Shown one piece after another: positions 1 through 55,633 of a DNA stretch of 64,000 bases. The stretch covers positions 62,661 through 126,660 of the forward strand of contig JAUCBJ010005935.1 in NCBI GenBank assembly GCA_032718475.1. The letters are read 5' to 3'. The notes below the pieces were generated by a model. That model was given only the letters and a program-made list of their open reading frames with translations, was not told the origin of the DNA and searched no databases. The number at the start of each line of letters is the position of its first letter. Positions within the stretch are counted from its first letter, which is position 1. Made by a program: the position numbers and the translations under genes. This DNA is from Nemertoderma westbladi. Taxonomy: Eukaryota > Animalia > Xenacoelomorpha.

Positions 1-3000
1 AATTATTATGTAGTCTTTTATTGCAAAATAATTGTTCTTTGGATCAGGGTTTATGAGATAAACAGATGGCAGTTTTCCTTGAAAGACAGTTGATATGTCC
101 AATAATGATGTTGATGGGGATGAATTTTCTGGAATATTTAATTCAGCATGGAGTGAAGGTATATCACAGCATGGGCGGGGAAGTTTTGTTGTATAGGGGG
201 TTGGTGTAGGTGTCGTGAATGTAGCTGGACATGATGTCGCTTTATACGTTGTTGGACAAGATACAGGTGTAGTTGTAGTTGTTGATTCAATACAGTCTAT
301 TATGACATTGACTGATCCATAACTATTGCAGTCATTGTTTGAGAATTTAAGTTGTAAATAAAACTCTTTGGTATCAAAACAGTCAAGCTCTTTCTTCAAA
401 ATGATCATGTAACCCTTTATTTCAAAATAATTGTTCTTTGGATCAGGGTTTATGAGATAAACATATGGCAGTTTCCCTTGAAAGACAGTTGAAATGTCCA
501 ATAATGATGTTGATGGGGATGAATTTTCTGGAATATTTAATTCAACATGGAGTGAAGGTATATCACAGCATGGGCGGGGAAGTTTTGTTGTATATGGAGT
601 TGGTGTAGGTGTCGTAAATGTAGCTGGACATGATGTCGCTTTATATGTTGTTGGACAAGATACAGGTGTAGTTGTAGTTGTTGATTCAATGCAGTCTATT
701 ATGACATTGACTGATCCATAACTATTGCAATTATTATTTGAGAATTTAAGTTGTAAATAAAACTCTTTGGTATCGAAACAGTCAAGCTCTTTCTTCAAAA
801 TTATCATGTAATCCTTTATTTCAAAATAATTGTTCTTTGGATCAGGGTTTATGAGATAAACAGATGGCAGTTTTCCTTGAAAGACAGTTGATATGTCCAA
901 TAATGATGTTGATGGGGATGAATTTTCTGGAATATTTAATTCAGCATGGAGTGAAGGTATATCACAGCAAGGGCGGGGAAGTTTTGTTGTATATGGAGTT
1001 GGTGTAGGTGTCGTGAATGTAGCTGGACATGATGTCGCTTTATATGTTGTTGGACAAGATACAGGTGTAGTTGTAGTTGTTGATTCAATGCAGTCTATTA
1101 TGACATTGACTGATCCATAACTATTGCAGTTATTATTTGAGAATTTAAGTTGTAAATAAAACTCGTTGGTATCAAAACAGTCAAGCTCTTTCTTCAAAAT
1201 TATTATGTAGTCTTTTATTGCAAAATAATTGTTCTTTGGATCAGGGTTTATGAGATAAACAGATGGCAGTTTTCCTTGAAAGACAGTTGAAATGTCCAAT
1301 AATGATGTTGTTGGGGTTGAATTTTCTGGAATATTTAATTCAACATGGAGTGAAGGTATATCACAGCATGGGCGGGGAAGTTTTGTTGTATATGGAGTTG
1401 GTGTAGGTGTCGTGAATGTAGCTGGGCATGATGTCGCTTTATATGTTGTTGGACAAGATACAGGTGTAGTTGTAGTTGTTGTTTCAATACAGTCTATTAT
1501 TACATTGACTGATCCATAACTATTGCAGTCATTGTTTGAGAATTTAAGTTGTAAATAAAACTCTTTGGTATCAAAACAGTCAAGCTCTTTCTTCAAAATT
1601 ATTATGTAGTCTTTTATTGCAAAATAATTGTTCTTTGGATCAGGGTTTATGAGATAAACAGATGGCAGTTTTCCTTGAAAGACAGTTGATATGTCCAATA
1701 ATGATGTTGATGGGGATGAATTTTCTGGAATATTTAATTCAGCATGGAGTGAAGGTATATCACAACAAGGGCGGGGAAGTTTTGTTGTATATGGAGTTGG
1801 TGTAGGTGTCGTGAATGTAGCTGGACATGATGTTGCTTTATATGTTGTTGGACAAGATACAGGTGTAGTTGTAGTTGTTGATGCAATGCAGTCTATTATG
1901 ACATTGACTGATCCATAACTATTGCAGTTATTATTTGAGAATTTAAGTTGTAAATAAAACTCTTTGGTATCGAAACAGTCAAGCTCTTTCTTTAAAATTA
2001 TCATGTAATCTTTTATTTCAAAATGATTGTTCTTTGGATCAGGGTTTATGAGATAAACAGATGGCAATTTTCCTTGAAAGACAGTTGATATGTCCAATAA
2101 TGATGTTGATGGGGATGAATTTCCTGGAATATTTAATTCAGCATGGAGTGAAGGTAAATCACAGCATGGGCGGGGAAGTTTTGTTGTATAGGGGGTTGGT
2201 GTTGGTGTCGTGAATGTAGCTGGGCATGATGTCGCTTTATATGTTGTTGGACAAGATACAGGTGTTGTTGTAGTTGTTGATTCAATGCAGTCTATTATGA
2301 TGTTTATTGAACCATAACTATTGCAGACGTTGTTTGAGAATTTAAGTTGTAAATAAAACTCTTTGGTATCAAAACAGTCAAGCTCTTTCTTCAAAATTAT
2401 TATGTAGTCTTTTATTGCAAAATAATTGTTCTTTGGATCAGGGTTTATGAGATAAACAGATGGCAGTTTTCCTTGAAAGACAGTTGATATGTCCAATAAT
2501 GATGTTGATGGGGATGAATTTTCTGGAATATTTAATTCAGCATGGAGTGAAGGTATATCACAGCATGGGCGGGGAAGTTTTGTTGTATAGGGGGTTGGTG
2601 TAGGTGTCGTGAATGTAGCTGGACATGATGTCGCTTTATACGTTGTTGGACAAGATACAGGTGTAGTTGTAGTTGTTGATTCAATACAGTCTATTATGAC
2701 ATTGACTGATCCATAACTATTGCAGTCATTGTTTGAGAATTTAAGTTGTAAATAAAACTCTTTGGTATCAAAACAGTCAAGCTCTTTCTTCAAAATGATC
2801 ATGTAACCCTTTATTTCAAAATAATTGTTCTTTGGATCAGGGTTTATGAGATAAACAGATGGCAGTTTCCCTTGAAAGACAGTTGAAATGTCCAATAATG
2901 ATGTTGATGGGGATGAATTTTCTGGAATATTTAATTCAACATGGAGTGAAGGTATATCACAGCATGGGCGGGGAAGTTTTGTTGTATATGGAGTTGGTGT

Positions 3001-8150: not shown

Positions 8151-11100
8151 TTATGGGTAAATTTGTAGGACAAGGTGTTGGGGGAGGCATTGTTGGTAAA
8201 ACCTCAAATACTGGACAAATCAATGGACAGAGAGGTTGTAACAACATCTCAGAAATAGCTATTGGATATCGATTTGGTTGTAAAATATCAATATCATTGA
8301 GTGAATTTCGGAGCTGCACACTGCTTGCAAGTATTGGATTTGTACCATCAATGATAATTGCCATTAAAATTATTGCATATGTAGACAAAACCTCATTGCA
8401 ATCAGTGTCATAATGTTGTTTAATTGCATATATAGATGTCCGAAATGAATTGGGAGTTTCTGCATTAAGCTCTGCCAAGAAGTCTCGTTCCTTGGAAGCA
8501 ATAACAGATGGGTCTTCTTCTTTTGTAAGCAATATTAATTGGTAATCTTCATTAGTTACACAAATATCAATATTAACACTATTGCTTTCAGATGTCCCAA
8601 TATCTGTTGCTCTAGCAACACATTGAAAACATTCACCTTTTAGTGCTGTAATATAATCTGATGTTCGTAGTATACCAGTTGTTCTGTCAATAGTAAATGA
8701 CAAACATTTGTTAGAACTAACTAGACTATATTCTGTTCTTCCATTTCCAACAGTGTCTTTATCACTTGTGGTGAGTGTAGCAATGAAGCTGTGTGGAGCT
8801 ACACAAGCATCTAAAATGAATTGATATTCGTTATCAAATTGTGGAGGATTGTCATTTGTATCCAGAATTGAAACATCAATAACAGCTATAGCCTCGCATA
8901 ATGCTCCAATCAAATTAACTTTAACTATATGCCTGTCATTGATTTCAAAATCGGAATTAACAATATCAACTGCCTTGTTTCTAACTAGAAAGTTGTTTAA
9001 GTCACTTCCACTGCTGACGCTACCAATACTAATACTCTGTAAAGACCCCAAATTGATATAATCATGGAGTTCCACAAATTGTGTATTTTCTGTTATCTCC
9101 ACAGCATTATATAAGCCATAACACCAGTCTGGTAGCTGGGACGAGCATCTACTGGCACATCTTATGGCATCGTAGTGATCGATATAATTCAAACCATTAC
9201 TTAGAAGTTCTGCAGTTACATCAGTAAGATCACTACTTATTAATGTATATATCTGGTTGGTATTCATGAGTTTGTATTCATCATTAGTAGAAAAGTCACT
9301 TAAACGCACTGCAGTGAATTCAACTGTTGTTTCAGCTGTTTTAAGGACGCAATTCTTATCATACCGCGCATGTGCATTATTTACAATAATATGATTTTGT
9401 TTTAAATTTAATGTGTTTGAAAGTATTTGTTTCACTTGTTCAATCGACTTTTCAACCTCATTCAGTGGATTATTGAAGTGGATGGCAGCTAAATTAGAAG
9501 CAGTTTGAACACAAAGATTAGCATTTGTGCGCTTGCTATGCTCACCTTGATCTACAACTTGTGGTATACATAATTTGCATGCTCCTATTTCACTTTCAAC
9601 AGGCTCTCTCTCAAGACGAACCATACCTGTTTTATCATTAACAGAAAATGGTGCACAATTTGTTAAACTGTATGTGAGTTCATCTAAAGGGTCTGCATCT
9701 TGGGCGATAAGTTTAACTACTTCAGTCCCCAATTTATCACATTCATTAGCTACACCAAAAAAGGTATTTTCAGTGAACCGTGGAAATTCATCATTTATGT
9801 TTTGTACATTGATAGTCACTGTAGCAAAACGTACACAATGTTGCAATAAAACTTTGACGCTGAGAATGTATTTAGTTGAACCTTCATCATAGTTAAGTGC
9901 AGAAATTGTTACTATTTTATTTGGATTTTCTACACCAAATAGACCTTGAATGTCCCCTTTAACAATTTCAATTTCAGTTACACCATCAACATTTATAATC
10001 CCAACTTCAGCACCAGCAATATTTTCATCTACCTTGAATTCTTCATAAATTGCATCTGAAAAGATACATGATACCATTGGAGTTGTAGTAGGGCACTGTA
10101 TTGGTTCAGCTGTTGTAGTAATTTCAATACAATCAATATTTATGTTTAATGACCCATAACTGTTACAGTTGTTATTGAACAATTTAAGTTGTAAATAAAA
10201 CTCTTTGGTATCGAAACAGTCAAGCTCTTTCATCAACAGAATCTTATAGTCTTTTACAGTGAAATAATTGTTCTTTGGATCTGGATTTATCAGATAAACA
10301 GATGGCAGTTTTCCTTGAAAGACTGCTGATATGTCTAATAATGATGTTGATATTGGTGAATTTTCTGGAATAGTCAATTCAGCATGGAGTGAAGGTATAT
10401 CACAGCATGGACGGGGAAGTTTTGTTGTATATGGGGTTGGTGTAGGTGTCGTGAGTGTAGCTGGGCATGATGTCGCTTTATATGTAGTTGGACAAGATAC
10501 AGGAGTAGTTGTAGTTGTTGATTCAATGCAGTCTATTATGACATTTACTGAACCATAACTATTGCAATTATTATCTGAGAATTTAAGTTGTAAATAAAAC
10601 TCTTTGGTATCGAAACAGTCAAGCTCTTTCATCAACAGTATCTTATAGTCTTTTACAGCGAAATAATTTTTCTTTGGATCTGGATTTATCAGATATACAG
10701 ATGGGACTTTTCCTTGAAAGACTGCTGATATGTCCAATAATGATGTTGATATTGGTGAATTATCTGGAATAGATAATTCAACATGGAGTGACGGTATATC
10801 ACAGCAAGGGCGGGGAAGTTTAGTTGTATATGGGGTTGGTGTATGTGTCGTGAATGTAGCTGGGCATGATGTTGCTTTATATGTTGTTGGACAAGATACA
10901 GGAGTTGTTGTAGTTGTTGATTCAATGCAGTCTATTATGACATTTACTGAACCATAACTTTTACAGTTGTTGTTAGAAAACTTAAGTTGTAAATAAAACT
11001 CTTTGGTATCGAAACAGTCAAGCTCATTCATCAACAGTATCTTATAGTCTTTTACAGCGAAATAATTGTTCTTTGGATCTGGATTTATCAGATAAACAGA

Positions 11101-14100
11101 TGGGAGTTTTCCTTGAAAAATTGCTGATATGTCCAATAATGATGTTGATATTGGTGAATTATCTGGAATAGATAATTCAACATGGAGTGAAGGTATATCA
11201 CAGCATGGGTGGGGAAGTTTAGTTGTATATGGGGTTGGTGTAGGTGTCGTGAATGTAGCTGGGCATGATGTTGCTTTATATGTTGTTGGACAAGATACAG
11301 GAGTAGTTGTAGTTGTTGATTCAATGCAGTCTATTATGACATTTACTGAACCATAACTTTTACAGTTGTTGTTAGAAAATTTAAGTTGCAAATAAAACTC
11401 TTTGGTATCGAAACAGTCAAGCTCTTTCATCAACAGTATCTTATAGTCTTTTACAGCGAAGTAATTGTTCTTTGGATCTGGATTTATCAGATAAACAGAT
11501 GGGAGTTTTCCTTGAAAGACTGCTGATATGTCCAATAATGACGTTGATATTGGTGAATTATCTGGAATAGATAATTCTGCATGTAGTGAAGGTATATCAC
11601 AGCATGGGTGGGGAAGTTTTGTTGTATAGGGAGTTGGAGTAGGTGTTGTTAAAGTAGCAGGACATGTTGTTGCTTTATAAGTAGTTGGACAAGGTACAGG
11701 AGTAGTTGTAGTTGTTGATTCAATGCAGTCTATTATGATATTTACTGAACCATAACTTTTACAGTTGTTGTTAGAAAACTTAAGTTGCAAATAAAACTCT
11801 TTGGTATCGAAACAGTCAAGCTCTTTCATCAACAGTATCTTATAGTCTTTTACAGCGAAATAATTGTTCTTTGGATCTGGATTTATCATATAAACAGATG
11901 GCCATTTTCCTTGAAAGACAGTAGATATGTCCAATAATGATGTTGATGGGGATGAATTTTCTGGAATATTTAATTCAGCATGGAGTGAAGGTATATCACA
12001 GCAAGGGCGGGGAAGTTTTGTTGTATAGGGAGTTGGAGTAGGTGTTGTTAAAGTAGCAGGACATGTTGTTGCTTTATAAGTAGTTGGACAAGATACAGGA
12101 GTAGCTGTAGTTGTTGATTCAATGCAGTCTATTATGAAATTTATTGAACCATATCTTTTACAGTTGTTGTTAGAAAACTTAAGTTGCAAATAAAACTCCT
12201 TGGTATCGAAACAGTCAAGCTCTTTCATCAACAGTATCTTATAGTCTTTTACAGCGAAATAATTGTTCTTTGGATCTGGATTTATCAGATAAACAGATGG
12301 GAGTTTTCCTTGAAAGACTGCTGATATGTCCAATAATGATGTTGATATTGGTGAATTATCTGGAATAGATAATTCTGCATGTAGTGAAGGTATATCACAG
12401 CATGGGCGGGGAAGTTTTGTTGTACAAGGTGTTGGAGTAGGTGTTGTTAAAATAGCTGGGCATGATGTCGCTTTATATGTTGTTGGACAAGATACCGGAA
12501 TAGTTGTAGTTGTGGATTCAATGCAGTCTATTATGACATTTACTGAACCATAACTTCTACAGTTGTTGTTAGAAAACTTAAGTTGCAAATAAAACTCTTT
12601 GGTATCGAAACAGTCAAGCTCTTTCATCAACAGTATCTTATAGTCTTTTACAACGAAATAATTGTTCTTTGGATCTGGATTTATCAGATAAACAGATGGC
12701 CATTTTCCTTGAAAGACTGCTGATATGTCCAATAATGATGTTGATATTGGTGAATTATCTGGAATAGATAATTCTGCATGTAGTGAAGGTATATCACAGC
12801 ATGGGCGGGGAAGTTTTGTTGTATAGGGAGTTGGAGTAGGTGTTGTTAAAGTAGCAGGACATGTTGTTGCTTTATAAGTAGTTGGACAAGATACAGGAGT
12901 AGCTGTAGTTGTTGATTCAATGCAGTCTATTATGACATTTATTGAACCATATCTTTTACAGTTGTTGTTAGAAAACTTAAGTTGCAAATAAAACTCCTTG
13001 GTATCGAAACAGTCAAGCTCTTTCATCAACAGTATCTTATAGTCTTTTACAGCGAAATAATTGTTCTTTGGATCTGGATTTATCAGATAAACAGATGGGA
13101 GTTTTCCTTGAAAGACTGCTGATATGTCCAATAATGATGTTGATATTGGTGAATTATCTGGAATAGATAATTCTGCATGTAGTGAAGGTATATCACAGCA
13201 TGGGCGGGGAAGTTTTGTTGTACAAGGTGTTGGAGTAGGTGTTGTTAAAATAGCTGGGCATGATGTCGCTTTATATGTTGTTGGACAAGATACCGGAGTA
13301 GTTGTAGTTGTGGATTCAATGCAGTCTATTATGACATTTACTGATCCATAACTATTACAGTTGTTGTTGGAGAATTTAAGTTGTAAATAGAACTCTTTGG
13401 TATCAAAACAGTCAAGCTCTTTCTTCAAAATTATTATGTAGTCTTTTATAGCAAAATAATTGTTCTTTGGATCAGGGTTTATGAGATAAACAGATGGCAG
13501 TTTTCCTTGAAATACTGCTGATATGTCCAATAATGATGTTGATGTTAGTGAATTATCTGGAATAGATAATTCAGCATGTAGTGAAGGTATATCACAGCAT
13601 GGGCGGGGAAGTTTTGTTGTACAAGGTGTTGGAGTAGGTGTTGTTAAAATAGCTGGGCATGATGTCGCTTTATATGTTGTTGGACAAGATACCGGAGTAG
13701 TTGTAGTTGTTGATTCAATGCAGTCTATTATGACATTTACTGAACCATAACTTCTACAGTTGTTGTTAGAAAACTTAAGTTGCAAATAAAACTCTTTGGT
13801 ATCGAAACAGTCAAGCTCTTTCATCAACAGTATCTTATAGTCGTTTACAACGAAATAATTGTTCTTTGGATCTGGATTTATCAGATAAACAGATGGGAGT
13901 TTTCCTTGAAAGACTGCTGATATGTCCAATAATGATGTTGATATTGGTGAATTATCTGGAATAGATAATTCTGCATGTAGTGAAGGTATATCACAGCATG
14001 GGCGGGGAAGTTTTGTTGTATAGGGAGTTGGAGTAGGTGTTGTTAAAGTAGCAGGACATGTTGTTGCTTTATAAGTAGTTGGACAAGATACAGGAGTAGT

Positions 14101-17100
14101 TGTAGTTGTTGATTCAATGCAGTCTACAATGATATTTACTGAACCATAACTTTTACAGTTGTTGTTAGAAAACTTAAGTTGCAAATAAAACTCTTTGGTA
14201 TCGAAACAGTCAAGCTCTTTCATCAATAGTATCTTATAGTCTTTTACAGCGAAATAATTGTTCTTTGGATCAGGGATTATGAGATAAACAGATGGCAGTT
14301 TTCCTTGAAATATTGCTGATATATCCAATAATGATGTTGATATTTGTGAATTATCTGGAATAGATAATTCAGTATGTAGTGAAGGTATATCACAGCATGG
14401 GCGGGGAAGTTTTGTTGTACAAGGTGTTGGAGTAGGTGTTGTTAAAATAGCTGGGCATGATGTCGCTTTATATGTTGTTGGACAAGATACCGGAGTAGTT
14501 GTAGTTGTGGATTCAATGCAGTCTATTATGATATTTACTGATCCATAACTATTACAGTTGTTGTTGGAGAATTTAAATTGTAAATAGAACTCTTTGGTAT
14601 CAAAACAGTCAAGCTCTTTCTTCAAAATTATCATATAATCTTTTAAAGCAAAATAATTGTTCTTTGGATCTGGATTTATGAGATAAACAGATGGCAGTTC
14701 TCCTTGAAATATTGCCGATATATCCAATAATGATGTTGATATTGGTGAATTATCTGGAATAGATAATTCAGCATGTAGTGAAGGAATATCACAGCATGGG
14801 CGGGGAAGTTTTGTTGTACAAGGTGTTGGAGTAGGTGTTGTTAAAATAGCTGGGCATGATGTCGCTTTATATGTTGTTGGACAAGATACCGGAGTAGTTG
14901 TAGTTGTGGATTCAATGCAGTCTATTATGATATTTACTGATCCATAACTATTACAGTTGTTGTTGGAGAATTTAAATTGTAAATAGAACTCTTTGGTATC
15001 AAAACAGTCAAGCTCTTTCTTCAAAATTATCATATAATCTTTTAAAGCAAAATAATTGTTCTTTGGATCTGGATTTATGAGATAAACAGATGGCAGTTCT
15101 CCTTGAAATATTGCCGATATATCCAATAATGATGTTGATATTGGTGAATTATCTGGAATAGATAATTCAGCATGTAGTGAAGGAATATCACAGCAAGGGC
15201 GGGGAAGTTTTGTTGTACAAGGTGTTGGAGTAGGTGTTGTTAAAATAGCTGGGCATGATGTCGCTTTATATGTTGTTGGACAAGATACCGGAGTAGTTGT
15301 AGTTGTGGATTCAATGCAGTCTATTATGATATTTACTGATCCATAACTATTACAGTTGTTGTTGGAGAATTTAAATTGTAAATAGAACTCTTTGGTATCA
15401 AAACAGTCAAGCTCTTTCTTCAAAATTATCATATAATCTTTTAAAGCAAAATAATTGTTCTTTGGATCTGGATTTATGAGATAAACAGATGGCAGTTCTC
15501 CTTGAAATATTGCCGATATATCCAATAATGATGTTGATATTGGTGAATTATCTGGAATAGATAATTCAGCATGTAGTGAAGGTATATCACAGCATGGGCG
15601 GGGAAGTTTTGTTGTACAAGGTGTTGGAGTAGGTGTTGTTAAAATAGCTGGGCATGATGTCGCTTTATATGTTGTTGGACAAGATACCGGAGTAGTTGTA
15701 GTTGTGGATTCAATGCAGTCTATTATGATATTTACTGATCCATAACTATTACAGTTGTTGTTGGAGAATTTAAATTGTAAATAGAACTCTTTGGTATCAA
15801 AACAGTCAAGCTCTTTCTTCAAAATTATCATATAATCTTTTAAAGCAAAATAATTGTTCTTTGGATCTGGATTTATGAGATAAACAGATGGCAGTTCTCC
15901 TTGAAATATTGCCGATATATCCAATAATGATGTTGATATTGGTGAATTATCTGGAATAGATAATTCAGCATGTAGTGAAGGAATATCACAGCAAGGGCGG
16001 GGAAGTTTTGTTGTATATGGGGTTGGTGTAGGTGTCGTGAATGTAGCTGGGCATGATGTCGCTTTATATGTTGTTGGACAAGATACTGGAGTTGTTGTAG
16101 TTGTTGATTCAATGCAGTCTATTATGACATTTACTGATCCATAACTATTGCAGTTATTATTTGAGAATTTAAGTTGTAAATAGAACTCTTTGGTATCGAA
16201 ACAGTCAAGCTCTTTCTTCAAAATTATCATATAATCTTTTATAGCAATATAATTGTTCTTTGGATCAGGGTTTATGAGATAAACAGATGGCAGTTTTCCT
16301 TGAAATACTGCTGATATGTCCAATAATGATGTTGATGTTAGTGAATTATCTGGAATAGATAATTCAGCATGTAGTGAAGGTATATCACAGCAAGGGCGGG
16401 GAAGTATTGTTGTACAAGGTGTTGGAGTAGGTGTTGTTAAAATAGCTGGGCATGATGTCGCTTGATATGTAGTTGGACAAGATACAGGTGTTGTGGTAGT
16501 TGTTGATTCAATGCAGTCTATTATGATATTGACAGAACCGTAACTATTGCAGTTATTGTTTGAGAATTTAAGTTGTAAATAAAATTCTTTGGTATCGAAA
16601 CAGTCAAGCTCTTTCTTCAGAATTATTATGTAGTCTTTTATAGCAAAATAATTATTCCTTGGATCAGGGTTTATGAGATAAACAGATGGCAGTTTTCCTT
16701 GAAATACTGCTGATATGTCCAATAATGATGTTGATATTGGTGAATTATCTGGAATAGATAATTCAGCATGTAGTGAAGGTATATCACAGCAAGGGCGGGG
16801 AAGTTTTGTTGCACAAGGTGTTGGAGTAGGTGTTGTTAAAATAGCTGGGCATGATGTTGCTTTATAGGTAGTTGGACAAGATACAGGTGTTGTGGTAGTT
16901 GTTGATTCAATGCAGTCTATTATGACATTTACTGATCCATAACTATTACAGTTGTTGTTGGAAAATTTAAGTTGTAAATAAAACTCTTTGGTATCGAAAC
17001 AGTCAAGCTCTTTCTTCAAAATTATCATATAATCTTTTATAGCAAAATAATTGTTCTTTGGATCTGGATTTATGAGATAAACAGATGGCAGTTCTCCTTG

Positions 17101-18093
17101 AAATATTGCCGATATATCCAATAATGATGTTGATATTGGTGAATTATCTGGAATAGATAATTCAACATGGAGTGAAGGTATATCACAGCATGGGCGGGGA
17201 AGTTTTGTTGTATATGGTGTTGGTGTAGGTGTTGTGAATGTAGCTGGGCATGATGTCGCTTTATATGTTGTTGGACAAGATACTGGAGTTGTTGTAGTTG
17301 TTGATTCAATGCAGTCTATTATGACATTGACTGATCCATAACTATTGCAGTCATTGTTTGAGAATTTAAGTTGTAAATAAAACTCTTTGGTATCAAAACA
17401 GTCAAGCTCTTTCTTCAAAATTATCATGTAATCTTTTATTTCAAAATAATTGTTCTTTGGATCAGGGTTTATGAGATAAACAGATGGCAGTTTTCCTTGA
17501 AGTACTTCCGATATGTCCAATAATGATGTCGATATTGGTGAAGTATCTGGAATTTTTAATTCAACATGTAGTGAAGGTATATCACAGCATGGGCGGGGGA
17601 GTTTAGTTGTATATGGGGTTGGTGTAGGTGTTGTGATAGTAGCAGGACATGATGTCGCTTTATATGTAGTTGGACACGACACTGGCATATGTGTTGTTGT
17701 AATTTCTTTTCCGCATTCAACGTTGATCTTCATGGAGCCATGCTGGAGGCAATTTCCATTTTTAAATGACAGTTGAAGATATATGTCATTAATGTCATGG
17801 CAATCGAGTTCTCTTACTAAGATTAATCTATTGAATTGTATTTCAAAATACTTATGTTTAGGGTCTCTGTTTGTTATTTCTACACTGACTTCTGATTCTG
17901 GGAAATAGTCACCAAAATCCACAATTGTGGATAGGCCATAGCTATCAGGCACAGTGACTTCTGCGTTCAGTGTGGGGATGTGGCAACAGATAGGTGGTTG
18001 TGAAGTTGGGCATGGTGTAGGTACAATCACTGTCCCAGGTGCTTTGATATTCACTACCATAAACCCACTGCTTGGTGGTTCTAACGACTCTGC
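1..18093 (-). CDS. Cadherin exon 17: giant repeat-coding exon, at least 18,093 bp, truncated by window edge
   Basis: TTTTAG|GCA acceptor at 18093; same frame (AESLEPP...) at both ends and in every stretch I translated. The only length change seen among repeats is a 3-bp deletion. The ORF track reports no long ORF here, which is expected if there is no stop before base 1. Confidence 0.9.
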
Positions 18094-39000: not shown

Positions 39001-41631
39001 TTCTACAGTACCGGCTGGTTCGATTGGAGATTGGTGATATAATGCTGCATTGTTGCTACAGTATCTGCTGGCCCGATTGGAAATTAGTAATATAAGGCTG
39101 CATTGTTGCTATCGTATCTGCTGGTCCGGTTCTAGATTGGTAATATAATGCTGTATTGTTGCTACAATACCGGCTGGTTGGATTGGAGATTGGTGATATA
39201 ATGCTGCATTGTTTCTACAGTATCTGCTGGCCCGATTGGAAATTAGTAATATTACGCTGCATTGTTGCTACCGTATCTTCTGGTCCGGTTCTAGATTGGT
39301 AATATAATGCTGCATTGTTGCTACAATACCAGCTGGTTCGATTGCAGATTGGTGATATAATGCTGCATTGTTTCTACAGTACCGGCTGGTTCGAATGGAG
39401 ATTGGTGATATAATGCTGCATTTTTGTTACAGTATCTTATGGTTCGATTGGATATTGGTGATATAATGCTGCATTGTTTCTACAGTACCGGCTGGTTCGA
39501 TTGGAGTTTGGTGATATAATGCTGCATTGTTGCTACAGTATCTGCTGGCCCGATTGGAAATTAGTAATATAAGGCTGCATTGTTGCTATCGTATCTGCTG
39601 TCCGGTTCTAGATTGGTGATATAATACTGCATTGTTGCTAAAGCAGTACCTGCTGGTTCGATTGGAGATTAGTGAGATAAAGCTGCATTGTTGCTACCGT
39701 ACGTGCTGGTCCGATTGGAGATTAGTAATATAATGCTGCATTGCTGCTACTGTACGTGCTGGTCCGATTGGAGATTAGTGATATAAAGCTGAATTGTTGT
39801 TACAGTACCTGCTGGTTCGATTGGAAATTATATAGTTATATAAAGCTGCATTGTTGCTACCGTACGTGTTGGTCCGATTGGAGATTAGTAATATAATGCT
39901 GCATTGCTGCTACTGTACGTGCTGGTCCGATTGGAGATTAGTGATATAAAGCTGAATTGTTGTTACAGTACCTGCTGGTTCGATTGGAAATTATATAGTT
40001 ATATAAAGCTGCATTGTTGCTACCGTACGTGTTGGTCCGATTGGAGATTAGTGATATAAAGCTGCATTGTTGCTACCGTACCTGCTGGTTCGATTGGAGA
40101 TTGGTGCATATGAGCTTCATTGTTGCAGTCGGAGGTACCGCTTCACGGTCCGGGGCCTTGAACATTTCGATCCGTTGTTCTCCAGCCTTTATTCGAATGT
40201 GCTGCAATAAATAAATAATCATTAAATTAAAGAGGTGCCAAAATATTACAAACCAATCAATACCGGTATATGATCTGATAAATATTATCGTTTAGTCGTA
40301 TCATGCATTGCAATGGCCTTCATTTCAAAGGAAACAAAATATTGAAAGTATTTTAGATTTCTGTAAGAAACACTGAATATTAAATATACACGGAAAAACA
40401 AATGTATCACACCCTAAAACAGTTCAGAGTATTTCTGAAAGCCCAAAAACTATCTTTGGACGATAAAATTAGTGAAACTCATCCAGCCGCTGCTGGTTTC
40501 AAAGCATCACAGCGCGCAAAGAAACGGAAACTTATGTTATGAGATTCTCCGTGGTATTACTAGTACAGGCCTACACCGATTCCGGAAACCTGGCGCCACT
40601 ATCACTATAACGCTATTTCAGCTCCAACTTGTCACAACTTTTGCCACAAGCAGGGCAGGTATCTTTCTACAATCAACCTGATGCTAATACTGTACGTGTA
40701 CATGGCTATTCGAAACAAGATACCGACGGTTATCAAGTATGTAGTAGAACAGTAGGTACTTTAAAACATAGGAGTTACGTCCATAGTAAGACACGAAGTG
40801 GGGCCTTCGCGCAGCACGTGACTTAATTATACTTAGTTATACATTTCGCCCTCTAGCGGCAGACTGGAGGACTCCAGACCGTTTACTGCCCACCAAAGAC
40901 TCAGGCCGACTTCTACTACATATCTGCTACGTTTCAGCTTGAACGGATCATAAATAACGAGATGGGAGAAAGATTTCACTTTCAAACATTTCGCCCTCTA
41001 GCGGCAGACTGAAGAACTGCACACGGATTAGCCTTCAATTCAATTCAATTCAATTCCTTCTTTCAAAGTCACAGCTAATGGTCTAGTACATATCTGCCAA
41101 ATTTCAGCATAAATGGATTAAAAGCAAAGAAATGGGAGGACATTTAACGTTTAGACATGTGGCCCTCTAGCAGGAGACTATTGCTCTGATGGTGTCTGAA
41201 AGTCTCTCAAACGTCTCAACTTTAGCTCATATTGATACCTACAAATTTTCAACTTGGCAGCTTTAAATCCGACAAAGTTATTAGCATGTCAAAATCGTAA
41301 CGACGACAACGATTTCACTTTCAGACCTTTGGCCCTCTAGCGGCAGACTGGAGAACTGCAGATGGATTCGCCTCCTTTGAAAGTCACAGCTAATGGTCTA
41401 ATACATATCTGCCAAGTTTCAGCTTAAACGGATTAAAAGCAAATAAATGGGAGGGCATTTAATGTTTAGACATGTGGCCCTCTAGCGGGAGACCATTGCA
41501 CTGATGGTGTCTGAAAGTCTCTCAAAAATCTCAACTTTTGCTCATATTGATACCTACAAATTTTCAACTTGGCAGCTTTAAATCCGACAAAGTTATTAGC
41601 ATGTCAAAATCGTAACGACGACGACGACGAC

Positions 41632-41718
<87 letters not shown>

Positions 41719-44700
41719 AACTATTTGCATAAATTGACCCACCCCCTAACAGTGTCAATTCGCTAAGGCTCCGCCAACTTCGTGGCTCGCCCCACAAGGT
41801 TTATCTAAAATAGCAATCTAGACCTATTTTGTGTTTCGTCTCTAGAACCGTCGTACAGTATTACAGTAGCTCTCTGTCTGTATGGATTAGTACTCTACCT
41901 CCGTTGCATCGGCGTCGCTTGCTGTATCATCGTGTACCAACTTGAGTGTAAAGTCTGTGTCTAGAATTCCAGATAATTCGAAGTTATCGCCGATATCCCT
42001 TGGAACATTGCCGTTCTCGTTCACATTAACTTCCAACTCGGCTCCTCCACTAAACGGCGACCCCTGTTCCGCGAAGCAAGGCAGCTGAGCTGGAATATAA
42101 TAACAAAAAAGTGAAAATCACAATGTATAGAGGGGTGGGGGCTAATAGGTCTATAGATCACACTTCCTTGAAATCCAAAAGTTATGTCTGGGGTAGTAGA
42201 AATTAACCTAATTCTTCGAGTAGTAAATTGTCTATTAATCCCTGTATCAGATGTTTTTATTTTGAAAAATATTTCAATACCTCTTATCTTCAATGTTCTG
42301 TATTCCTATTGTAACTTAATATTGTTAACCAGAATACACCCCCTATTTATATGGGGTTCCAAACATGTCAAAAACAATTTTGCATTTGAATTTCAAACAT
42401 TGGGGTGGGGGTAAGGAGCCAATTAGAGAGATGGTACTCTACTCATAGTGAGCAGAAGCGATAATAACCATAATTATTTGGCCTACTCCAGTTGTCAAAT
42501 TTAATAATATGCGTATATATAACGATTTTGTTTTTGATCTTGGGTCTTCAGTTCAGATTGTGTTAATGTTAAGACACGTGCGTGGGGCGTCGCCCCACGC
42601 AAGCAGGCTTTGCATGAGCAAGTTCGATTTGATCTGAAGTCAAAAGTTTGAGAGGTAATTGCCCGTAACTTTAAAAAATATTGTAAATTTTTCTCTAGTA
42701 TGAACCCATACAAAATTTGGTTGATAATGGTTAAAATCTTCAAAAGTTATTTACGAATGAATTTTTCATTACAGACAGACAAACAGACGGACGGACAGAC
42801 AGACGGACGTGATATTTTGCCCTATTTACTAATTATAATTGTGCGCTAAGGCTCGCCCTGACAGCGTGGCTCGCCCCACGGTAAACTATTAATTGAAACT
42901 CATCATATTTATTATTACACATACATAAAAACATCATCATCTGATTTTTCCCAGAACCCACCCAGCCCCCTTCGGCCAAATCCCGTAACTACTTGAAATT
43001 CAGCGCATGGTGGATTTCGGAGAATGGAGAACTAACCCAAAGATCCAATACGGCAGGGTAAATCAACCAAGGGAAAATCAACCCAAGCAACCCAATGGTT
43101 GCGAACTTTGTTCCAATGGTTGCGAACTTTGTTCCAATGGTTGCGAACTTTGTTCCAATGAGAGTAGTCCAACTGCGAACATTGTTCCAATGGTTGCGAA
43201 CTTTGTTCCAATGGTTGCGAACTTAGTTCCAATGGTAGCGAACTTAGTTTCAATGGTTGCGAACTTTGTGCCAATGGTTGCGAACTTTGTTCCAATGGTT
43301 GCGAACTTTGTTCCAATGGTCGCGAACTTAGTTCTAATGGTTGCGAACTTTGTTCCAATGGTTGCGAACTTTGTTCCAATGAGAGTAGTCCAACTGCGAA
43401 CATTGTTCCAATGGTTGCGAACTTAGTTTCAATGGTTGCGAACTTTGTGCCAATGGTTGCGAACTTTGTTCCAATGGTTGCGAACTTTGTGCCAATGGTT
43501 GCGAACTTTGTTCCAAAGGGTTGCGAACTTTGTTCCAATGGTAGCGAACTTTGTTCCAATGGTCGCGAACTTAGTTCTAATGGTTGCGAACTTTGTTCCA
43601 ATGGTTGCGAACTTTGTTCCAATGAGAGTAGTCCAACTGCGAACATTGTTCCAATGGTTGCGAACTTTGTTCCAATGGTTGCGAACTTAGTTCCAATGGT
43701 AGCGAACTTAGTTTCAATGGTTGCGAACTTTGTGCCAATGGTTGCGAACTTTGTTCCAATGGTTGCGAACTTTGTTCCAATGGTCGCGAACTTAGTTTCA
43801 ATGGTTGCGAACTTTGTGCCAATGGTTGCGAACTTTGTTCCAATGGTTGCGAACTTAGTTCCAATGGTTGCGAACTTAGTTCCAATGGTTGCGAACTTTG
43901 TGCCAATGGTTGCGAACTTTGTTCCAATGGTTGCGAACTTTGTTCCAATGAGAGTAGTCCAACTGCGAACATTGTTCCAATGGTTGCGAACTTTGTTCCA
44001 ATGGTTGCGAACTTAGTTCCAATGGTAGCGAACTTAGTTTCAATGGTTGCGAACTTTGTGCCAATGGTTGCGAACTTTGTTCCAATGGTTGCGAACTTTG
44101 TTCCAATGGTCGCGAACTTAGTTCTAATGGTTGCGAACTTTGTTCCAATGGTTGCGAACTTTGTTCCAATGAGAGTAGTCCAACTGCGAACATTGTTCCA
44201 ATGGTTGCGAACTTAGTTTCAATGGTTGCGAACTTTGTGCCAATGGTTGCGAACTTTGTTCCAATGGTTGCGAACTTTGTGCCAATGGTTGCGAACTTTG
44301 TTCCAATGGTTGCGAACTTTGTTCCAATGGTAGCGAACTTTGTTCCAATGGTCGCGAACTTAGTTCTAATGGTTGCGAACTTTGTTCCAATGGTTGCGAA
44401 CTTTGTTCCAATGAGAGTAGTCCAACTGCGAACATTGTTCCAATGGTTGCGAACTTTGTTCCAATGGTTGCGAACTTAGTTCCAATGGTAGCGAACTTAG
44501 TTTCAATGGTTGCGAACTTTGTGCCAATGGTTGCGAACTTTGTTCCAATGGTTGCGAACTTTGTTCCAATGGTCGCGAACTTAGTTTCAATGGTTGCGAA
44601 CTTTGTGCCAATGGTTGCGAACTTTGTTCCAATGGTTGCGAACTTAGTTCCAATGGTTGCGAACTTAGTTCCAATGGTTGCGAACTTTGTGCCAATGGTT

Positions 44701-53700: not shown

Positions 53701-55633
53701 TGAGTTTGAATGTTGTCAAGAAGTATTTGATGTAGCAAAGAAAATGTTTGCGAGGGAATGTCAAAATGCTATGCGAAACCCACAAATACTTTGCAAGGAA
53801 ATGAGATTGCGAGTGTTACCCCAAAGTTACTGGAACACAAGAGATCAATATCAAATTCTTGAATCTATTCATTTGAGTGATCTTAGAACCTACCTAAATA
53901 GATTGCTGCATAATTTGCACATTAATGGACTAATACAAGGGAATTTAACGAAGGAAGATGCCTTGGAATATGTTGATGTTGTGATCAGTCAACTACAACT
54001 CGGGGTTCTTGATAAATGGGCGATTCCTCATCTTAGAGTTTATGAGATTCCCTGGGGACAACACGTTCTTCGAGTTCGCAACCCCATGGCGGGGGATGTC
54101 AATTCCGTTACCTCTAACTACTACCAGTTCGGATCTTCCACCATCGACACGTTGCTAATGATGGAAATTTTGACAGACTTTCTAGTCGAACCGGTGTCTG
54201 AGATTCTGCGCACAAAGGAACAACTCGGTTACGACATCCGTTGTGAGATGCGGCCGATATTCGGCACAATCGGATTTCACATCCAAGTCATCTACCAAAT
54301 AGATAGGCACAGTCCTAATCATGTTGATAACAAGATCGAGGAATGCCTAACTACTATGAAAAGAAAGATTCGACTAATGAGCAAACATATGTTTGGTGAG
54401 CTGGTTGAAGGGTTAATTAGCAGTAAAGTGGCAGAGGAAAATAGCCTAGGAGAGGAAGTATCACGAAATTGGCGAGAAATTCTAAATCGCACGTATCTGT
54501 TCAACAGACGCGTGCATGAAATTTCACATTTGACGAAATTGTCAGTTGAAGAATTCAAGAGTTGGTTTTTCAAAGCGTTACCAGAATCTGCTGCGGGTAA
54601 GAAGTTATCCTTCCAGGTTGTAGGTAACATGAGAAACGATCCCAACTTCATGGATAATCTTGAGGAAAGTCTACCGGAGAAGGGGATCACATTGGAAACA
54701 GGACGCCATGGTGATAACGATACAAAAGACGTAGCAACCGGTCGCAAATTCATTAAAAATATTATGGAGTTTCAAAACAAACTTCGTCTTTACCCAGTGT
54801 CTATATAAATAGCAACAAATAAATGGTCATTCATAATATACAAAAGTACACGCAATTAAACGTGCGTGCATAATAATATCGAACATATTTAGTACTATTA
54901 TGTATAGAACCATTGTACTCTACAGGCGGGGCGTTCATAAAGTATGTCCCGCAAAAGGGGGGGGGGGGGTCTAGCTTGCGTGACATTTTGTGACAAGGGG
55001 GGGGGGGTTGACTTTTGTGACAGTCACGGCGATGTTCTACGGTATGCTTTAATGGTAGCTTGACTTTGACTAACACATTTGTAGATGAGTAGTTATGGAC
55101 TACAACACTGAAGGAAATAGTTGGTATATATTCGATTCGTAATCATAATATCGTTGTTATGCCGGAATTCTTATGTTAGTCACTAAAAACCTAGGTGTAG
55201 GGTTCATAGGAACAAAGTTCGAATCCTATTGGAACAAAGTTCGAATCCTATTGGAACAAAGTTCACAACTATTGGTACAAAGTTAGCAACCCATTTGAAA
55301 AAAGTTCACAAAAGAAGGTTTTGGAACAAAGTACCGTACACGAGATTAAATGACCTTGTGTAGATGGCCAAAGGGAAAGTGCTGTTTGTAGCTTGTAGGT
55401 AGTGTTGTCAAATTTGTCGTAGATAGGGTATACAGTATATAAAGAGGAATTATTTATATTGCTTGTTTACACATTACGCTATTTGATTTCTGTTTCCAGT
55501 TCCAATGAATAAACTCAATTGTTAAATACCAATAATTACTATTCTACTGGTACTTACCCTGACACAACGAGGCTGTCCATAGCAAGAACAGCCCCAGTTG
55601 CAGCCACAAAGTAAAATAAAACGGGCCACCCAT
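1..55633 (-). CDS. Giant multi-exon cadherin-related protein (PCDH15/Cad99C/CDHR5-like N-terminus, ~40 cadherin-mucin repeats), 3' end outside window
   Basis: 17 exons joined with consistent phases: 55633-55558, 42089-41899, 40201-40082, 28442-28119, 27886-27748, 26867-26688, 26544-26387, 25888-25670, 24947-24810, 23038-22877, 22450-22245, 21892-21701, 21382-21313, 21148-21045, 20109-19967, 19714-19617, 18093-1. The first 16 exons total 2520 nt (840 aa) and the last adds 6031 codons. Cadherin motifs include DVNDNEP, PEN, ATDND, DYE, DRE and DINETPP. Confidence 0.9.
8220..10070 (-). other. Non-repetitive coding insert: two tandem EC-EC-MAD/SEA-like modules
   Basis: Translation shows VDEN..LNYD..NINDEFPRF..AQDAD..TG, then LAAIHFNNPLNEVEKSIEQVKQILSNTL. 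A second module follows: ITEN..DFE..DTNDNPPQF..SDKD..FTIDRTTG..ATD, then YQLILLTKEEDPSVIASKERDFLAELNA. Confidence 0.7.
10090..18030 (-). repeat. Coding tandem array B, 399-bp unit, 19 copies plus one diverged lead copy
   Basis: Landmarks 10331 to 17513 span exactly 18 x 399 bp. The lead copy (ICCHIPTLNAEVTVPDS...RELDCHD...INVEC) is diverged but keeps the domain cysteines. Confidence 0.97.
19617..19714 (-). CDS. Cadherin exon 16 (EC7)
   Basis: FPTATTGIQINKDNGQITLNEALVSDVAITVK; AAG|GTTGGT donor, phase 0 into the giant exon. Confidence 0.85.
19967..20109 (-). CDS. Cadherin exon 15 (EC7)
   Basis: CAVTYEAIYDETLILPANID...IKATGTGVTYSIAS; G|GTGAGA donor; phases match both neighbours. Confidence 0.8.
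21045..21148 (-). CDS. Cadherin exon 14 (EC6/EC7)
   Basis: DSFGNSATTSVTINIREPGETLSLQFGTCPTGLL; AG|GTAAGT donor. Confidence 0.85.
21313..21382 (-). CDS. Cadherin exon 13 (EC6)
   Basis: TGIIRSSEMFTSPGQRVLQVIAQ; completes F-x-ID-x-x-TG-x-I across the splice. Confidence 0.85.
21701..21892 (-). CDS. Cadherin exon 12 (EC5/EC6)
   Basis: QSFAVVTVNAYTPTF...VTYSL...FVIDQ; GTAAGT donor. Confidence 0.85.
22245..22450 (-). CDS. Cadherin exon 11 (EC5)
   Basis: VSASDED...IAYSL...LFEVDGSGQV...YVLLVRAEE; AG|GTGAGT donor. Confidence 0.9.
22520..22680 (+). mobile_element. SINE-like fragment
   Basis: GGTCGATAAAATGAGTACCAG resembles a conserved SINE core motif as I recall it; followed by a GC-rich segment and a TTTGC-type tail. 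Not verified by search. Confidence 0.35.
22877..23038 (-). CDS. Cadherin exon 10 (EC4/EC5)
   Basis: VTVTDDQGRSESTQVAVTVTDINETPPKF...GVVK; AAG|GTGAGT donor. Confidence 0.9.
23624..24130 (+). mobile_element. Non-autonomous DINE-1/Helentron-associated-like element with (GTC)n tract
   Basis: Begins GTGGGGCGAGCCACG and has a ~65-bp internal inverted repeat (about 23635-23699 vs 24041-24105), a (GTC)n microsatellite and two CCGCTAGAGGGC motifs. A near-identical inverted copy lies at 41315-41795. Confidence 0.7.
24810..24947 (-). CDS. Cadherin exon 9 (EC4)
   Basis: GEVPNRTYSVSPSTAPFTATEVNGAVLLSLSGSLDKETSPDPFNIQ; CAG|GTAAAT donor. Confidence 0.85.
25670..25888 (-). CDS. Cadherin exon 8 (EC3/EC4)
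   Basis: ALEVNP...ININGVNEFPTVF...IPENSPLGT...LTDADKLMP; GTAAGA donor. Confidence 0.9.
25985..26235 (+). mobile_element. 3' fragment of RTE-like non-LTR retrotransposon
   Basis: Translates RIRLHFAGHCFRRDE*PVHNLALWRP...GGQPMTFLRRILKDTGL, the typical RTE ORF C-terminus pattern, with an internal stop. Confidence 0.65.
26387..26544 (-). CDS. Cadherin exon 7 (EC3)
   Basis: VTDDNRL...YFSV...ESIDREVFQNMVFYVK; AAG|GTTGGT donor. Confidence 0.9.
26688..26867 (-). CDS. Cadherin exon 6 (EC3)
   Basis: ANELYFKYQATITEG...IYAVDPDID...IRYSLIP; G|GTAAGT donor. Confidence 0.9.
26955..27088. repeat. Near-perfect hairpin, 60-bp arms, 14-nt loop
   Basis: 26955-27014 is the reverse complement of 27029-27088 with about 4 mismatches. 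Confidence 0.9.
27748..27886 (-). CDS. Cadherin exon 5: EC2 end and EC3 start with Cys loop
   Basis: DNPKISANSLTSTATLTVNIVDENDQRPQFVPCATTGSLTSLASCS; phase 0/1. Confidence 0.85.
28119..28442 (-). CDS. Cadherin exon 4: EC1 end and EC2
   Basis: LEYIIRFHLLDVNDNEPVF...LPEN...ATDND...FSID..TG...DYE...IEAK; TTTCACAG acceptor, AAG|GTAAGC donor. Confidence 0.95.
28497..40126. repeat. 53-bp satellite, roughly 185 units, filling intron 3 (interrupted at 28889-30610)
   Basis: Minus-strand unit GCAACAATGCAGCTTTATATCACCAATCTCCAATCGAACCAGCAG-GTACGGTA. Higher-order periods of 318 and 530 bp are visible from identical spurious ORFs at 33150, 33468 and 33998. Confidence 0.97.
28889..30610 (-). mobile_element. 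5'-truncated Ty3/Gypsy-like LTR retrotransposon: integrase C-terminus, PPT and 3' LTR
   Basis: ORF 30597-30091 has LMYGR, QKQYHD and FRGPYAIV (GPY/F domain). Polypurine tract AAGAAGGGGGG lies just before an LTR at 29297-28889 bounded by TGTG...CACA. Confidence 0.85.
40082..40201 (-). CDS. Cadherin exon 3: second half of EC1
   Basis: TTGCAG acceptor; HIRIKAGEQRIEMFKAPDREAVPPTATMKLICTNLQSNQQ (DRE motif, F-strand Cys); CAG|GTACGG donor; 120 nt, phase 0/0. Confidence 0.85.
40790..41795 (-). mobile_element. Second, longer DINE/HINE-like element with internal duplication and (GAC)n tract
   Basis: Reverse complement of the 23624 element; ~340-bp internal duplication; five GCCCTCTAGC(G/A)G motifs; (GAC)n at about 41616-41718. 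Confidence 0.75.
41899..42089 (-). CDS. Cadherin exon 2: first half of EC1
   Basis: TTCCAG acceptor; QLPCFAEQGSPFSGGAELEVNVNENGNVPRDIGDNFELSGILDTDFTLKLVHDDTASDADATE; GAG|GTAGAG donor. Confidence 0.8.
42575..42885 (-). mobile_element. Related DINE-1-like element with ACAG/ACGG microsatellite
   Basis: Shares the GCTAAGGCT...CGTGGCTCGCCCCAC end with the elements above; (ACAG/ACGG)n at 42771-42810; GCGTGGGGCGTCGCCCCACGC hairpin at the other end. Confidence 0.6.
43092..44946. repeat. 21-bp minisatellite (CCAATGGTTGCGAACTTTGTT) with ~790-bp higher-order period
   Basis: The variant unit containing GAGAGTAGT recurs at 43160, 43381, 43624, 43950, 44171, 44413 and 44739 (spacings 221, 243, 326, 221, 242, 326). 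Confidence 0.97.
45040..48188. repeat. 48-bp minisatellite, about 65 copies
   Basis: Unit GTGGTGTATGTAAGTTATTTAGTGTGCCTGAGATGTAAGTACGTTAAG. Confidence 0.97.
48475..50288. mobile_element. Long-TIR MITE (older) whose right end is split by another insertion
   Basis: About 48475-48760 is an imperfect inverted copy of about 48975-49280 (e.g. GCTATTTCGATACAACAAGCCGATAAAA). The terminal CATCTCCCTTAA pairs with TTAAGGGAGATG at 50277-50288. Confidence 0.7.
49282..50276. mobile_element. MITE nested in the right TIR of the previous element
   Basis: Termini TAGTCGAGTCAATCTAGC / GCTAGATTGACTCGCCTA; ~125-bp imperfect TIRs; flanks TTTA / TTAA. Confidence 0.75.
50346..51484. mobile_element. Mutator/foldback-like non-autonomous element with 9-bp TSD
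   Basis: Perfect 31-bp TIR GGTACTACTATGTTATGGGTACCCACTTTTT. TSD GATGGAACG at 50337-50345 and 51485-51493. Internally repeated TAGCTA(G) blocks in inverted arrangement. Confidence 0.9.
51593..54808 (+). CDS. NRDC: Nardilysin-like M16A (insulinase family) metallopeptidase, uninterrupted 1071-aa ORF
   Basis: EKKAAVALCVGAGSFDDPDGLPGLAHFLEHM (HxxEH), ENAYTDHERTVF, DSEF, HPMSRFFWGN, GHEGEGS, LRTKEQLGY. An insertion precedes the active site, as in nardilysin. AATAAA at 54818-54823. Confidence 0.92.
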   Translation: MSSKNLLADIPLNYSEPVIKGPADNKHYKPFTLEGSGIKVLLIQDVVKFGKPIERPSLESLFKKNNEKQGLSSVEDDVETVNDVSGSSSSSSSGTSCLLSDKYIRNSSILTSEEKKAAVALCVGAGSFDDPDGLPGLAHFLEHMLFMGSKKYPKENSWETFIDEHGESENAYTDHERTVFHFSIQQEFLKEALERFASYFISPLFDKDSMKKELKALDSEFQMKSTTDCHRQEQVLQTTVKPSHPMSRFFWGNIETLSTIPEREGINVRDRIVKFYEDIYKKRLITICVQSLHPLETVEKWVTKSFSKFHANLETKDENIERVFLKKYPFIRESFNKILHIRPIFDHNKICVTWSIDSTFQFYKEKPLVFLSSLLGHEGEGSIINYLRKRLWAVEIVAGQTDSGFEDNSFQSLFHVDIFLTHDGLKNVMTVINIVHQYINMLNRCQPYDWLWSDIANISQLEFVFRSETDPEINVDNIACAMQKYNPEDYLIGDYLVLTSGSEVVDTVLHLLTPRAANYRLVSKHYFTNKFNLVEPWFGTQYGVEDIPEDQNNTWETDQQLEYLHLPPQNKYIPHDFAIKWDDNTCNSYDADELIKYRKKPTLICDNLGCQVWFQPDLKFRVPKAYVKFHLMTNFNYRAPFEFVTGQLLAMIIMQRLAPVLYNARSADMNYRVYTGHLGLVLSLHGYNDKLLLLMKTVIRFIAEFECCQEVFDVAKKMFARECQNAMRNPQILCKEMRLRVLPQSYWNTRDQYQILESIHLSDLRTYLNRLLHNLHINGLIQGNLTKEDALEYVDVVISQLQLGVLDKWAIPHLRVYEIPWGQHVLRVRNPMAGDVNSVTSNYYQFGSSTIDTLLMMEILTDFLVEPVSEILRTKEQLGYDIRCEMRPIFGTIGFHIQVIYQIDRHSPNHVDNKIEECLTTMKRKIRLMSKHMFGELVEGLISSKVAEENSLGEEVSRNWREILNRTYLFNRRVHEISHLTKLSVEEFKSWFFKALPESAAGKKLSFQVVGNMRNDPNFMDNLEESLPEKGITLETGRHGDNDTKDVATGRKFIKNIMEFQNKLRLYPVSI
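54926..55030. mobile_element. MITE end fragment (Harbinger-like)
   Basis: GGGGCGTTCATAAAGTATGT terminus-like motif with G runs and GTGACA repeats; partner end not found. Confidence 0.3.
55205..55332. repeat. Short degenerate array of the 21-bp repeat, inverted relative to 43092-44946
   Basis: TTGGAACAAAGTTCGAATCCTA-like units, about 5-6, match the reverse complement AACAAAGTTCGCAACCATTGG. Confidence 0.75.
55558..55633 (-). CDS. Cadherin exon 1: start codon and signal peptide
   Basis: MGGPFYFTLWLQLGLFLLWTASLCQ then G|GTAAGT. The phase-1 end joins CT of the next exon to give ...LCQA-QLPC, a plausible signal cleavage site. Confidence 0.8.

Follow-up and report, generated by a model that had tools for sequence, protein, structure and literature searches.

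We analysed a 64,000-nucleotide stretch of the Nemertoderma westbladi genome (contig JAUCBJ010005935.1, positions 62,661 to 126,660 of the forward strand; hereafter the window). In character this DNA is eukaryotic, its introns are short and it contains satellites. On its minus strand lies a gene of 17 predicted exons, rebuilt by coordinates from stop-to-stop translations and the raw sequence, that encodes 6,871 aa with no internal stop. All 16 introns of this predicted splice model are bounded by GT..AG, and their phases chain. Exon 1 (55558..55633) provides the start codon and a predicted signal peptide of 25 aa. The first half of EC1, with an N-terminal cysteine (Cys30), is encoded by exon 2 (41899..42089) and its second half, with a PDRE motif and Cys121, by exon 3 (40082..40201). 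Exon 4 (28119..28442) covers the EC1-2 linker and EC2 (Pfam PF00028, E 3.5e-12), and exon 5 (27748..27886) the EC2-3 junction with a PCDH15-type FVPC...C loop (Cys270 and Cys282). EC3 and the start of EC4 are spread over exons 6-8 (26867-26688, 26544-26387 and 25888-25670), EC4 to EC6 over exons 9-14 (24947-24810, 23038-22877, 22450-22245, 21892-21701, 21382-21313 and 21148-21045) and EC7 over exons 15-16 (20109-19967 and 19714-19617), the latter ending inside the domain.

Exon 17 (1..18093) measures at least 18,093 bp and is open; its first ~19 codons complete EC7. Read along the minus strand, it then contains a first array of 20 units of 133 aa (10069..17988), a middle block of two modules, EC-EC-MAD1 (9130..10068), recognised by Pfam and by our EC and MAD profiles, and EC-EC-MAD2 (8200..9126), and a second array of 20 complete units plus a partial one (1..8148). 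Throughout positions 1-18093 this strand forms one open frame of 6,031 codons, and each of the other five frames has 269-510 stops. The gene leaves the window at position 1 still open, without a stop or a membrane segment: no membrane segment was found in the 6,871 aa, where hydropathy stays at or below 2.0 in every 19-residue stretch after the signal peptide. A first-pass annotation of this DNA had given the length as at least 6,871 aa, with neither TM segment nor stop, and the rebuilt model arrives at exactly that figure. The same annotation had estimated about 50 cadherin-fold domains; we counted 7+20+4+20 = 51 predicted ones and one partial. Over the whole chain there are 319 cysteines, and P, T and S make up 31% of the residues.

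The introns contain several further elements. In intron 3 (28497-40128, minus strand) there is a 53-bp satellite whose repeat arose from the final 47 nt of exon 3 together with the splice donor. It comprises 183 copies, including the real exon end, with a mean identity of 72%; GT stands at the donor position in 78 copies, and only the first of them can be reached without a stop codon. At 30094-30609 (minus) this satellite is interrupted by a remnant of a Gypsy/Tf2-type integrase C terminus (PF24626, E 8e-7). Inside intron 1, the plus strand encodes an intact and intronless nardilysin-like metallopeptidase of 1,071 aa (51593-54808) with HFLEH kept. Its identity to any match is at most 38% and its branch in a quick tree is very long; the gene is probably a fast-evolving nested retrocopy. 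Intron 1 also carries two tandem arrays, with periods of 21 bp (43092-44937, ~75-83 copies) and 48 bp (45050-48188, ~65 copies), whose ORFs are apparent by-products of the repeat, and a short copy of the 21-bp motif appears again at 55205-55311.

Tandem ECs with calcium-linker motifs, a trait of the cadherin superfamily, are present in the protein. The EC profile detected seven EC stretches in the N-terminal head, EC7 being weak (1.8 bits). DxNDN-type linkers occur at aa 140, 259, 420, 536, 3605 and 3918, and the calcium motifs of the head are kept at the EC1-2 to EC4-5 linkers. Between EC6 and EC7 (exons 14-15, 20087-21064; aa 754-761) we observed a second short cysteine loop, and there the calcium motif is missing. 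Two further features recall particular cadherins. Placed by sequence motif, Cys30 and Cys121 of EC1 fall on strand A and F positions, and a cysteine pair on strands A and F is described for EC1 of CDHR5 and PCDH15 (PMC8691648). The FVPC...C loop lies at aa 267-282, at the start of EC3, where PCDH15 likewise has a cysteine loop (PMC7547225). As a reference we used 151 cadherins fetched by two word-index homologue searches, which are not a census; none of the 151 has the FxPC motif, and none is labelled PCDH15.

In PDB searches, PCDH15 ranked second for exon 5 and ninth for exon 8. The best stretch of exon 5 against PCDH15 (chain 11iy_C, residues 223-248) is the EC2-3 junction including the F-x-P-C cysteine, and exon 8 aligned to residues 358-401, the following junction; exons 2, 3, 6 and 7, searched singly against the PDB, found no cadherin. 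We also scored the head with five subfamily profiles, built without PCDH15, Cad99C or CDHR5 sequences. Generic protocadherins came out highest (69.9 bits) and a Cr-3-like set of fish proteins with the same EC1 cysteines lowest (41.9 bits). The five profiles did not discriminate between subfamilies. Kinship with PCDH15 and CDHR5, which the first-pass annotation had proposed for the head, is suggested by two cysteine motifs and not by overall similarity. By motif, the head would be a PCDH15-type tip. Three fish proteins (P0045, P0052 and P0053) carry the names 'protocadherin Fat 4-like' or 'Fat' but are probably mislabelled: each combines 12-13 ECs with a MAD-like domain and a membrane segment, and P0045 and P0052 show PCDH15/CDHR5-type EC1 cysteines.

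The join between exons 16 and 17 (19617 to 18093) connects this head to the giant open frame. Exon 16 stops in the middle of EC7, and reading through its end meets a stop after three codons. The ORF of exon 17 starts in phase 0, exactly behind an AG that has a pyrimidine tract. It lacks a separate signal peptide, and the residues it begins with can be aligned gap-free to the end of EC6 (NIREPG / NIKAPG). In addition, we recognised no further long coding exon on the minus strand from 19617 to 18093. All of this speaks against a different model, in which exon 17 does not belong to the cadherin-head transcript: the head splices elsewhere, and the giant ORF, with upstream exons of its own, is another gene, either separate or captured. 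Such a model could point to the lower GC3 of exon 17 (0.24 versus 0.43 for the pooled head exons, which singly range from 0.24 to 0.64), to the 16 introns within the first 840 codons versus none within 640 non-repetitive codons of the middle block, and to the EC profile, which gained modestly from the join (6 of 200 shuffles were equally good). We consider a split gene improbable and the 16-17 join plausible on these sequence features.

Across both arrays we counted 41 places where a unit starts: 20 precede the middle block, and 20 complete units and a partial one of 57 aa follow it. TRF reported a period of 399. Each unit consists of a ~95-aa domain of predicted cadherin fold and a 38-aa Thr/Pro/Cys linker; unit 1 is diverged (42% in the domain) and the linker of unit 20 is short. 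Neither a Pfam scan nor a PDB sequence search recognised the unit, the PDB matches being chance only (E 0.68 or worse), and an Atlas score of 0.88 with low recognition served as a lead only. A profile of ten units searched against 1.84 billion proteins returned a single match, P0195 (E 1.9e-5), which is bacterial and has four cadherin domains. This match is in register, with IPDN/IPEN on xEN, ELDCFD on the DYE motif and IIDCIES on DxND. The AlphaFold model of the unit, computed from 26 rows taken from the window only, is a beta-sandwich with a mean pLDDT of 73.9 (76-88 in the domain). With this model as query, every row listed by Foldseek was a cadherin entry, the best being PCDH15 EC4-7 (E 4.9e-6). 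VIA, run on the Foldseek matches as a second look at the same candidates, gave Z 12.9 for a cadherin (rmsd 3.1, 95 aligned) and Z 12.7 for PCDH15 EC6-7 (rmsd 2.0, 93 aligned). The profile match and the model support the predicted cadherin fold of the units and the earlier description of them as EC-like; the unit profile did not score the ECs of the middle block above shuffles (-0.6 bits).

The earlier description had overlooked two traits of the units: their calcium motifs are lost, and their invariant cysteines are odd in number. Other residues (ELDCFD, IIDCIEST) stand in place of DxD, the DRE glutamate and DxNDN, and successive domains are held apart by a linker of 38 aa. By motif, canonical calcium sites between units are absent, most of the calcium ligands being gone. 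Seven invariant cysteines recur in all of the 37 units compared, nine of which have an eighth. Two of the invariant cysteines occupy the DRE and DxNDN positions. In cadherins these positions cluster around calcium ions, and the alignment suggests that a disulfide may have taken the place of a calcium site. In unit numbering, the expected pairs would be Cys64-Cys93 and Cys1/2-Cys81, with one thiol left free. The linkers consist of 39% T, 21% P and 7% S (67% P/T/S), with ~17 Ser/Thr each, and are all encoded in exon 17. PTS-rich tandem repeats within a large exon are a trait of mucins.

Since several of these units are identical or nearly so, the array might be an assembly over-expansion, or a neutral repeat that is not expressed. 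Three units show no differences, and array 2 includes a 6-unit higher-order duplication whose copies differ, over 2.39 kb, by 8 mismatches and a single 3-nt indel. Over the 37 full units (unit 1 left out), however, pN/pS was 0.20 (domains 0.21, linkers 0.13), and 0.27 and 0.25 when each allele was counted once. The repeats are under purifying selection and, since pN/pS among the units is 0.20, the 18-kb last exon is coding. On average, two units of array 1 differ at 33 of 399 nt, two units of array 2 at 17 and units from different arrays at 47, and the only unit of deviating length has lost one whole codon. All of these values oppose an artefact or neutral repeat. They accompany recent tandem and higher-order duplication within one exon.

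Public short reads were compared as contigs covering the middle block and its flanks. For the middle block, the contigs of 4 of 4 DNA runs from three studies (one possibly the source of the window) contained no other letters. Among the sequencing runs listed as matches there was no RNA run, a result without bearing on expression. Contigs of single unit variants had 11-17 times the depth of the middle block (runs X1 and X2, two studies); the window contains the corresponding words 9-12 times, so that the depth ratio is similar or higher. Contig depth does not measure true copy number, but no over-expansion is apparent from it, and it hints at an array 2 that extends past the window. Taken with the pN/pS and the unit differences, it makes an artefact or neutral repeat highly improbable. 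One X2 contig of 4,946 nt begins at the boundary of units 1 and 2 and seems to run toward the upstream exons. Runs X2 and X3 also yielded a loose contig end with a unit-like linker that has no match in the window at 3 mismatches; there is therefore a diverged unit elsewhere, either downstream or in a paralogue.

In the middle block, our home-made EC profile found four EC stretches (Pfam PF00028, E 2.2e-12). Modules 1 and 2 align from end to end with 22% identity and with their cysteines in register, so that module 2 reads as an old duplicate of module 1. For the MADs we built a profile from 11 juxtamembrane regions of the fetched cadherins, in each of which the MAD stands before a membrane segment. 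MAD1 scored 20.6 bits (best of 500 shuffles: 5.2), which supports it as a cadherin MAD. MAD2 matched over its full length and in register, but two of the 500 shuffles exceeded its 3.6 bits; the alignment of the two modules and the Atlas lead given below support it indirectly. For both internal modules together, MAD identity is predicted. The architecture given in the first-pass annotation was recovered in its signal peptide, seven ECs, both arrays and the first of two MAD-like domains; the second, taken on its own, is weak and scores in the range of shuffled sequences. Atlas placed module 2 best with cadherin clusters (0.93) and at 0.85-0.86 with MAD-bearing cadherins and dystroglycan, values that we treat as leads only. 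Pfam found nothing real on the MADs, an alignment-free AlphaFold model of the 643-aa middle block reached a pLDDT of 33 and gave no match in a fold search, and homologue searches with the block retrieved generic cadherins only, at 38% identity or less (74 and 77 matches). Two internal MADs set this protein apart from the cadherins described in 10.1101/460097, in which every MAD is single and follows the last EC; the same source describes the PCDH15 MAD as dimerising and as predicted to be mechanically weak.

The protein is a real and unusual non-classical cadherin, built from known parts. Its size, which had been singled out as exceptional, is no record at 50 ECs: 8 of the 151 cadherins have 50-70 EC matches. 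Giant EC-only cadherins reach as many ECs or more (70 matches in P0284 from Octopus, 54 in P0253 from Monosiga), but their ECs are contiguous, without PTS spacers and without a detected internal MAD. A single PTS stretch between ECs occurs in two of the 151. None of the 151 shows one-to-one alternation of ECs and mucin, and none has internal duplicated MADs, the MAD profile being of limited sensitivity and detecting 13 of the 151. One apparent internal MAD, in the fish 'hypothetical protein' P0029, was rejected: a membrane segment follows it directly and then a second cadherin, with membrane segments at 1451 and 2344, and the entry seems to be a fused annotation of two neighbouring cadherin genes. 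The architecture was also not found in the mostly open-access literature searched, judged by titles and the starts of abstracts. The first-pass statement that ECs each alternating with their own mucin linker are unmatched has thus withstood both comparisons. An exact look-up of three proteins of the window returned none of them from the protein collection. One-to-one EC/mucin alternation and internal, duplicated MADs are apparently undescribed.

Several known systems share parts of this design. PCDH15 and Cad99C have in common with it a signal peptide, N-terminal and F-strand cysteines in EC1, a cysteine loop at the start of EC3 and a MAD (PMC8691648, PMC7547225). They are described with 11 ECs, one membrane-adjacent MAD and a PDZ tail (PMC2171266; 10.1101/460097), whereas the protein analysed here has seven ECs in its head, 40+ EC-like and calcium-poor beads separated by mucin spacers, and two internal MADs. 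CDHR5 shares the Cr-3-type EC1 cysteines and the combination of cadherin repeats and mucin-like sequence in one ectodomain, but comprises four ECs and one mucin block followed by a membrane segment (PMC8691648); here, the mucin is divided into 40 short cysteine-containing spacers, one per domain. MUC5AC, MUC5B and MUC2 (CysD/PTS) also set folded domains among PTS spacers, with a large exon (PMC1552070). In MUC16, too, repeated folded domains (multiple SEA) stand among PTS spacers, and mucin length likewise evolves by tandem duplication. Unlike in these mucins, the repeated domain is a predicted cadherin fold instead of CysD or SEA, the scanned parts contain no VWD, and P, T and S account for no more than 31% of the chain. 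Dystroglycan carries a cadherin-like and a SEA-type domain twice, around a mucin stretch. It resembles our protein in layout, with repeated cadherin-like plus ferredoxin-fold modules beside mucin (Atlas 0.86 for module 2, a lead only), but measures ~750 aa in the Atlas cluster and has no tandem array or cadherin head.

We favour the explanation, at a probability of roughly 55%, that this giant non-classical cadherin is a membrane-anchored and sugar-coated apical filament, microvillar or of the glycocalyx, that is lengthened like a mucin. The head would be the adhesive tip, binding a partner cadherin or matrix. The units would serve as calcium-independent beads, stapled by disulfides with cysteines where calcium ligands were, and the 38-aa linkers as presumably O-glycosylated stiff rods. 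Beads and rods together would form a stalk with a contour of, by a rough sum, ~0.6 um within the window. Its length may be tuned by unequal crossing-over, as in mucin repeats, and mucin PTS regions usually lie in one large exon (PMC1552070). The EC-EC-MAD pair might be a duplicated relic of the juxtamembrane end, and its MADs, now in mid-stalk, could pair chains or yield under mechanical load. Cross-links between neighbouring chains might form through the odd cysteine, and the membrane anchor would lie beyond the window. PCDH15, Cad99C, CDHR2 and CDHR5 each cross the membrane once and belong to stereocilia or microvilli (PMC8691648, PMC2171266), and a microvillar role has its nearest precedent in Cad99C because the ectodomain of that protein sets microvillus length (PMC2171266).

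Some observations count against an anchored filament, namely the 6,871 aa without a membrane segment and the position of the MADs, which are not membrane-adjacent as in known cadherins; a PCDH15-type origin is not favoured by the subfamily profiles. Cysteine-rich repeats with mucin spacers are, moreover, typical of secreted gel-formers (PMC1552070). The main rival is accordingly a secreted scaffold of mucus, cuticle, egg coat or adhesive, in which cysteine-rich beads would cross-link a gel and the cadherin head would dock the mesh to cells. A signal peptide with no membrane segment fits such a scaffold, as do the abundant cysteines, invariant in an odd number per unit, and the alternation of folded domains and PTS in one large exon, which is the CysD/PTS layout of gel-forming mucins. 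On the other side, the MAD-bearing cadherins in our profile have the MAD before a membrane segment, as do those described in 10.1101/460097, and Pfam scans of the head exons, of the first units and of the middle block showed neither a VWD nor a cystine-knot domain. We regard secretion as less likely than an anchored filament, and a split gene or an artefact as unlikely explanations of the locus.

Going further, the anchored filament could represent a new class of surface polymer, a possibility that we raise tentatively. A tip-link-type cadherin would have turned mucin, with 40+ calcium-independent, disulfide-stapled beads between glycosylated rods and a MAD duplicated in mid-stalk as a branching or force-release node. 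The product would be a cross-linked, micron-scale mesh of glycocalyx or mucus, anchored by a cadherin handshake.

So far the protein is an orphan of a single species, and our reading of it is drawn from sequence and predicted structure. Combined in it are two designs that the proteins we examined have only singly, the adhesive tip of a microvillar or tip-link cadherin and the repeat-expanding, glycosylated stalk of a mucin. If this is true, the cadherin fold can be calcium-free and disulfide-stabilised, and a MAD, otherwise membrane-adjacent, can function at a distance from the membrane. The protein would also be a candidate for the long filaments by which microvilli are connected with cuticle, mucus or egg coats, in a lineage of animals that has been under-sampled.
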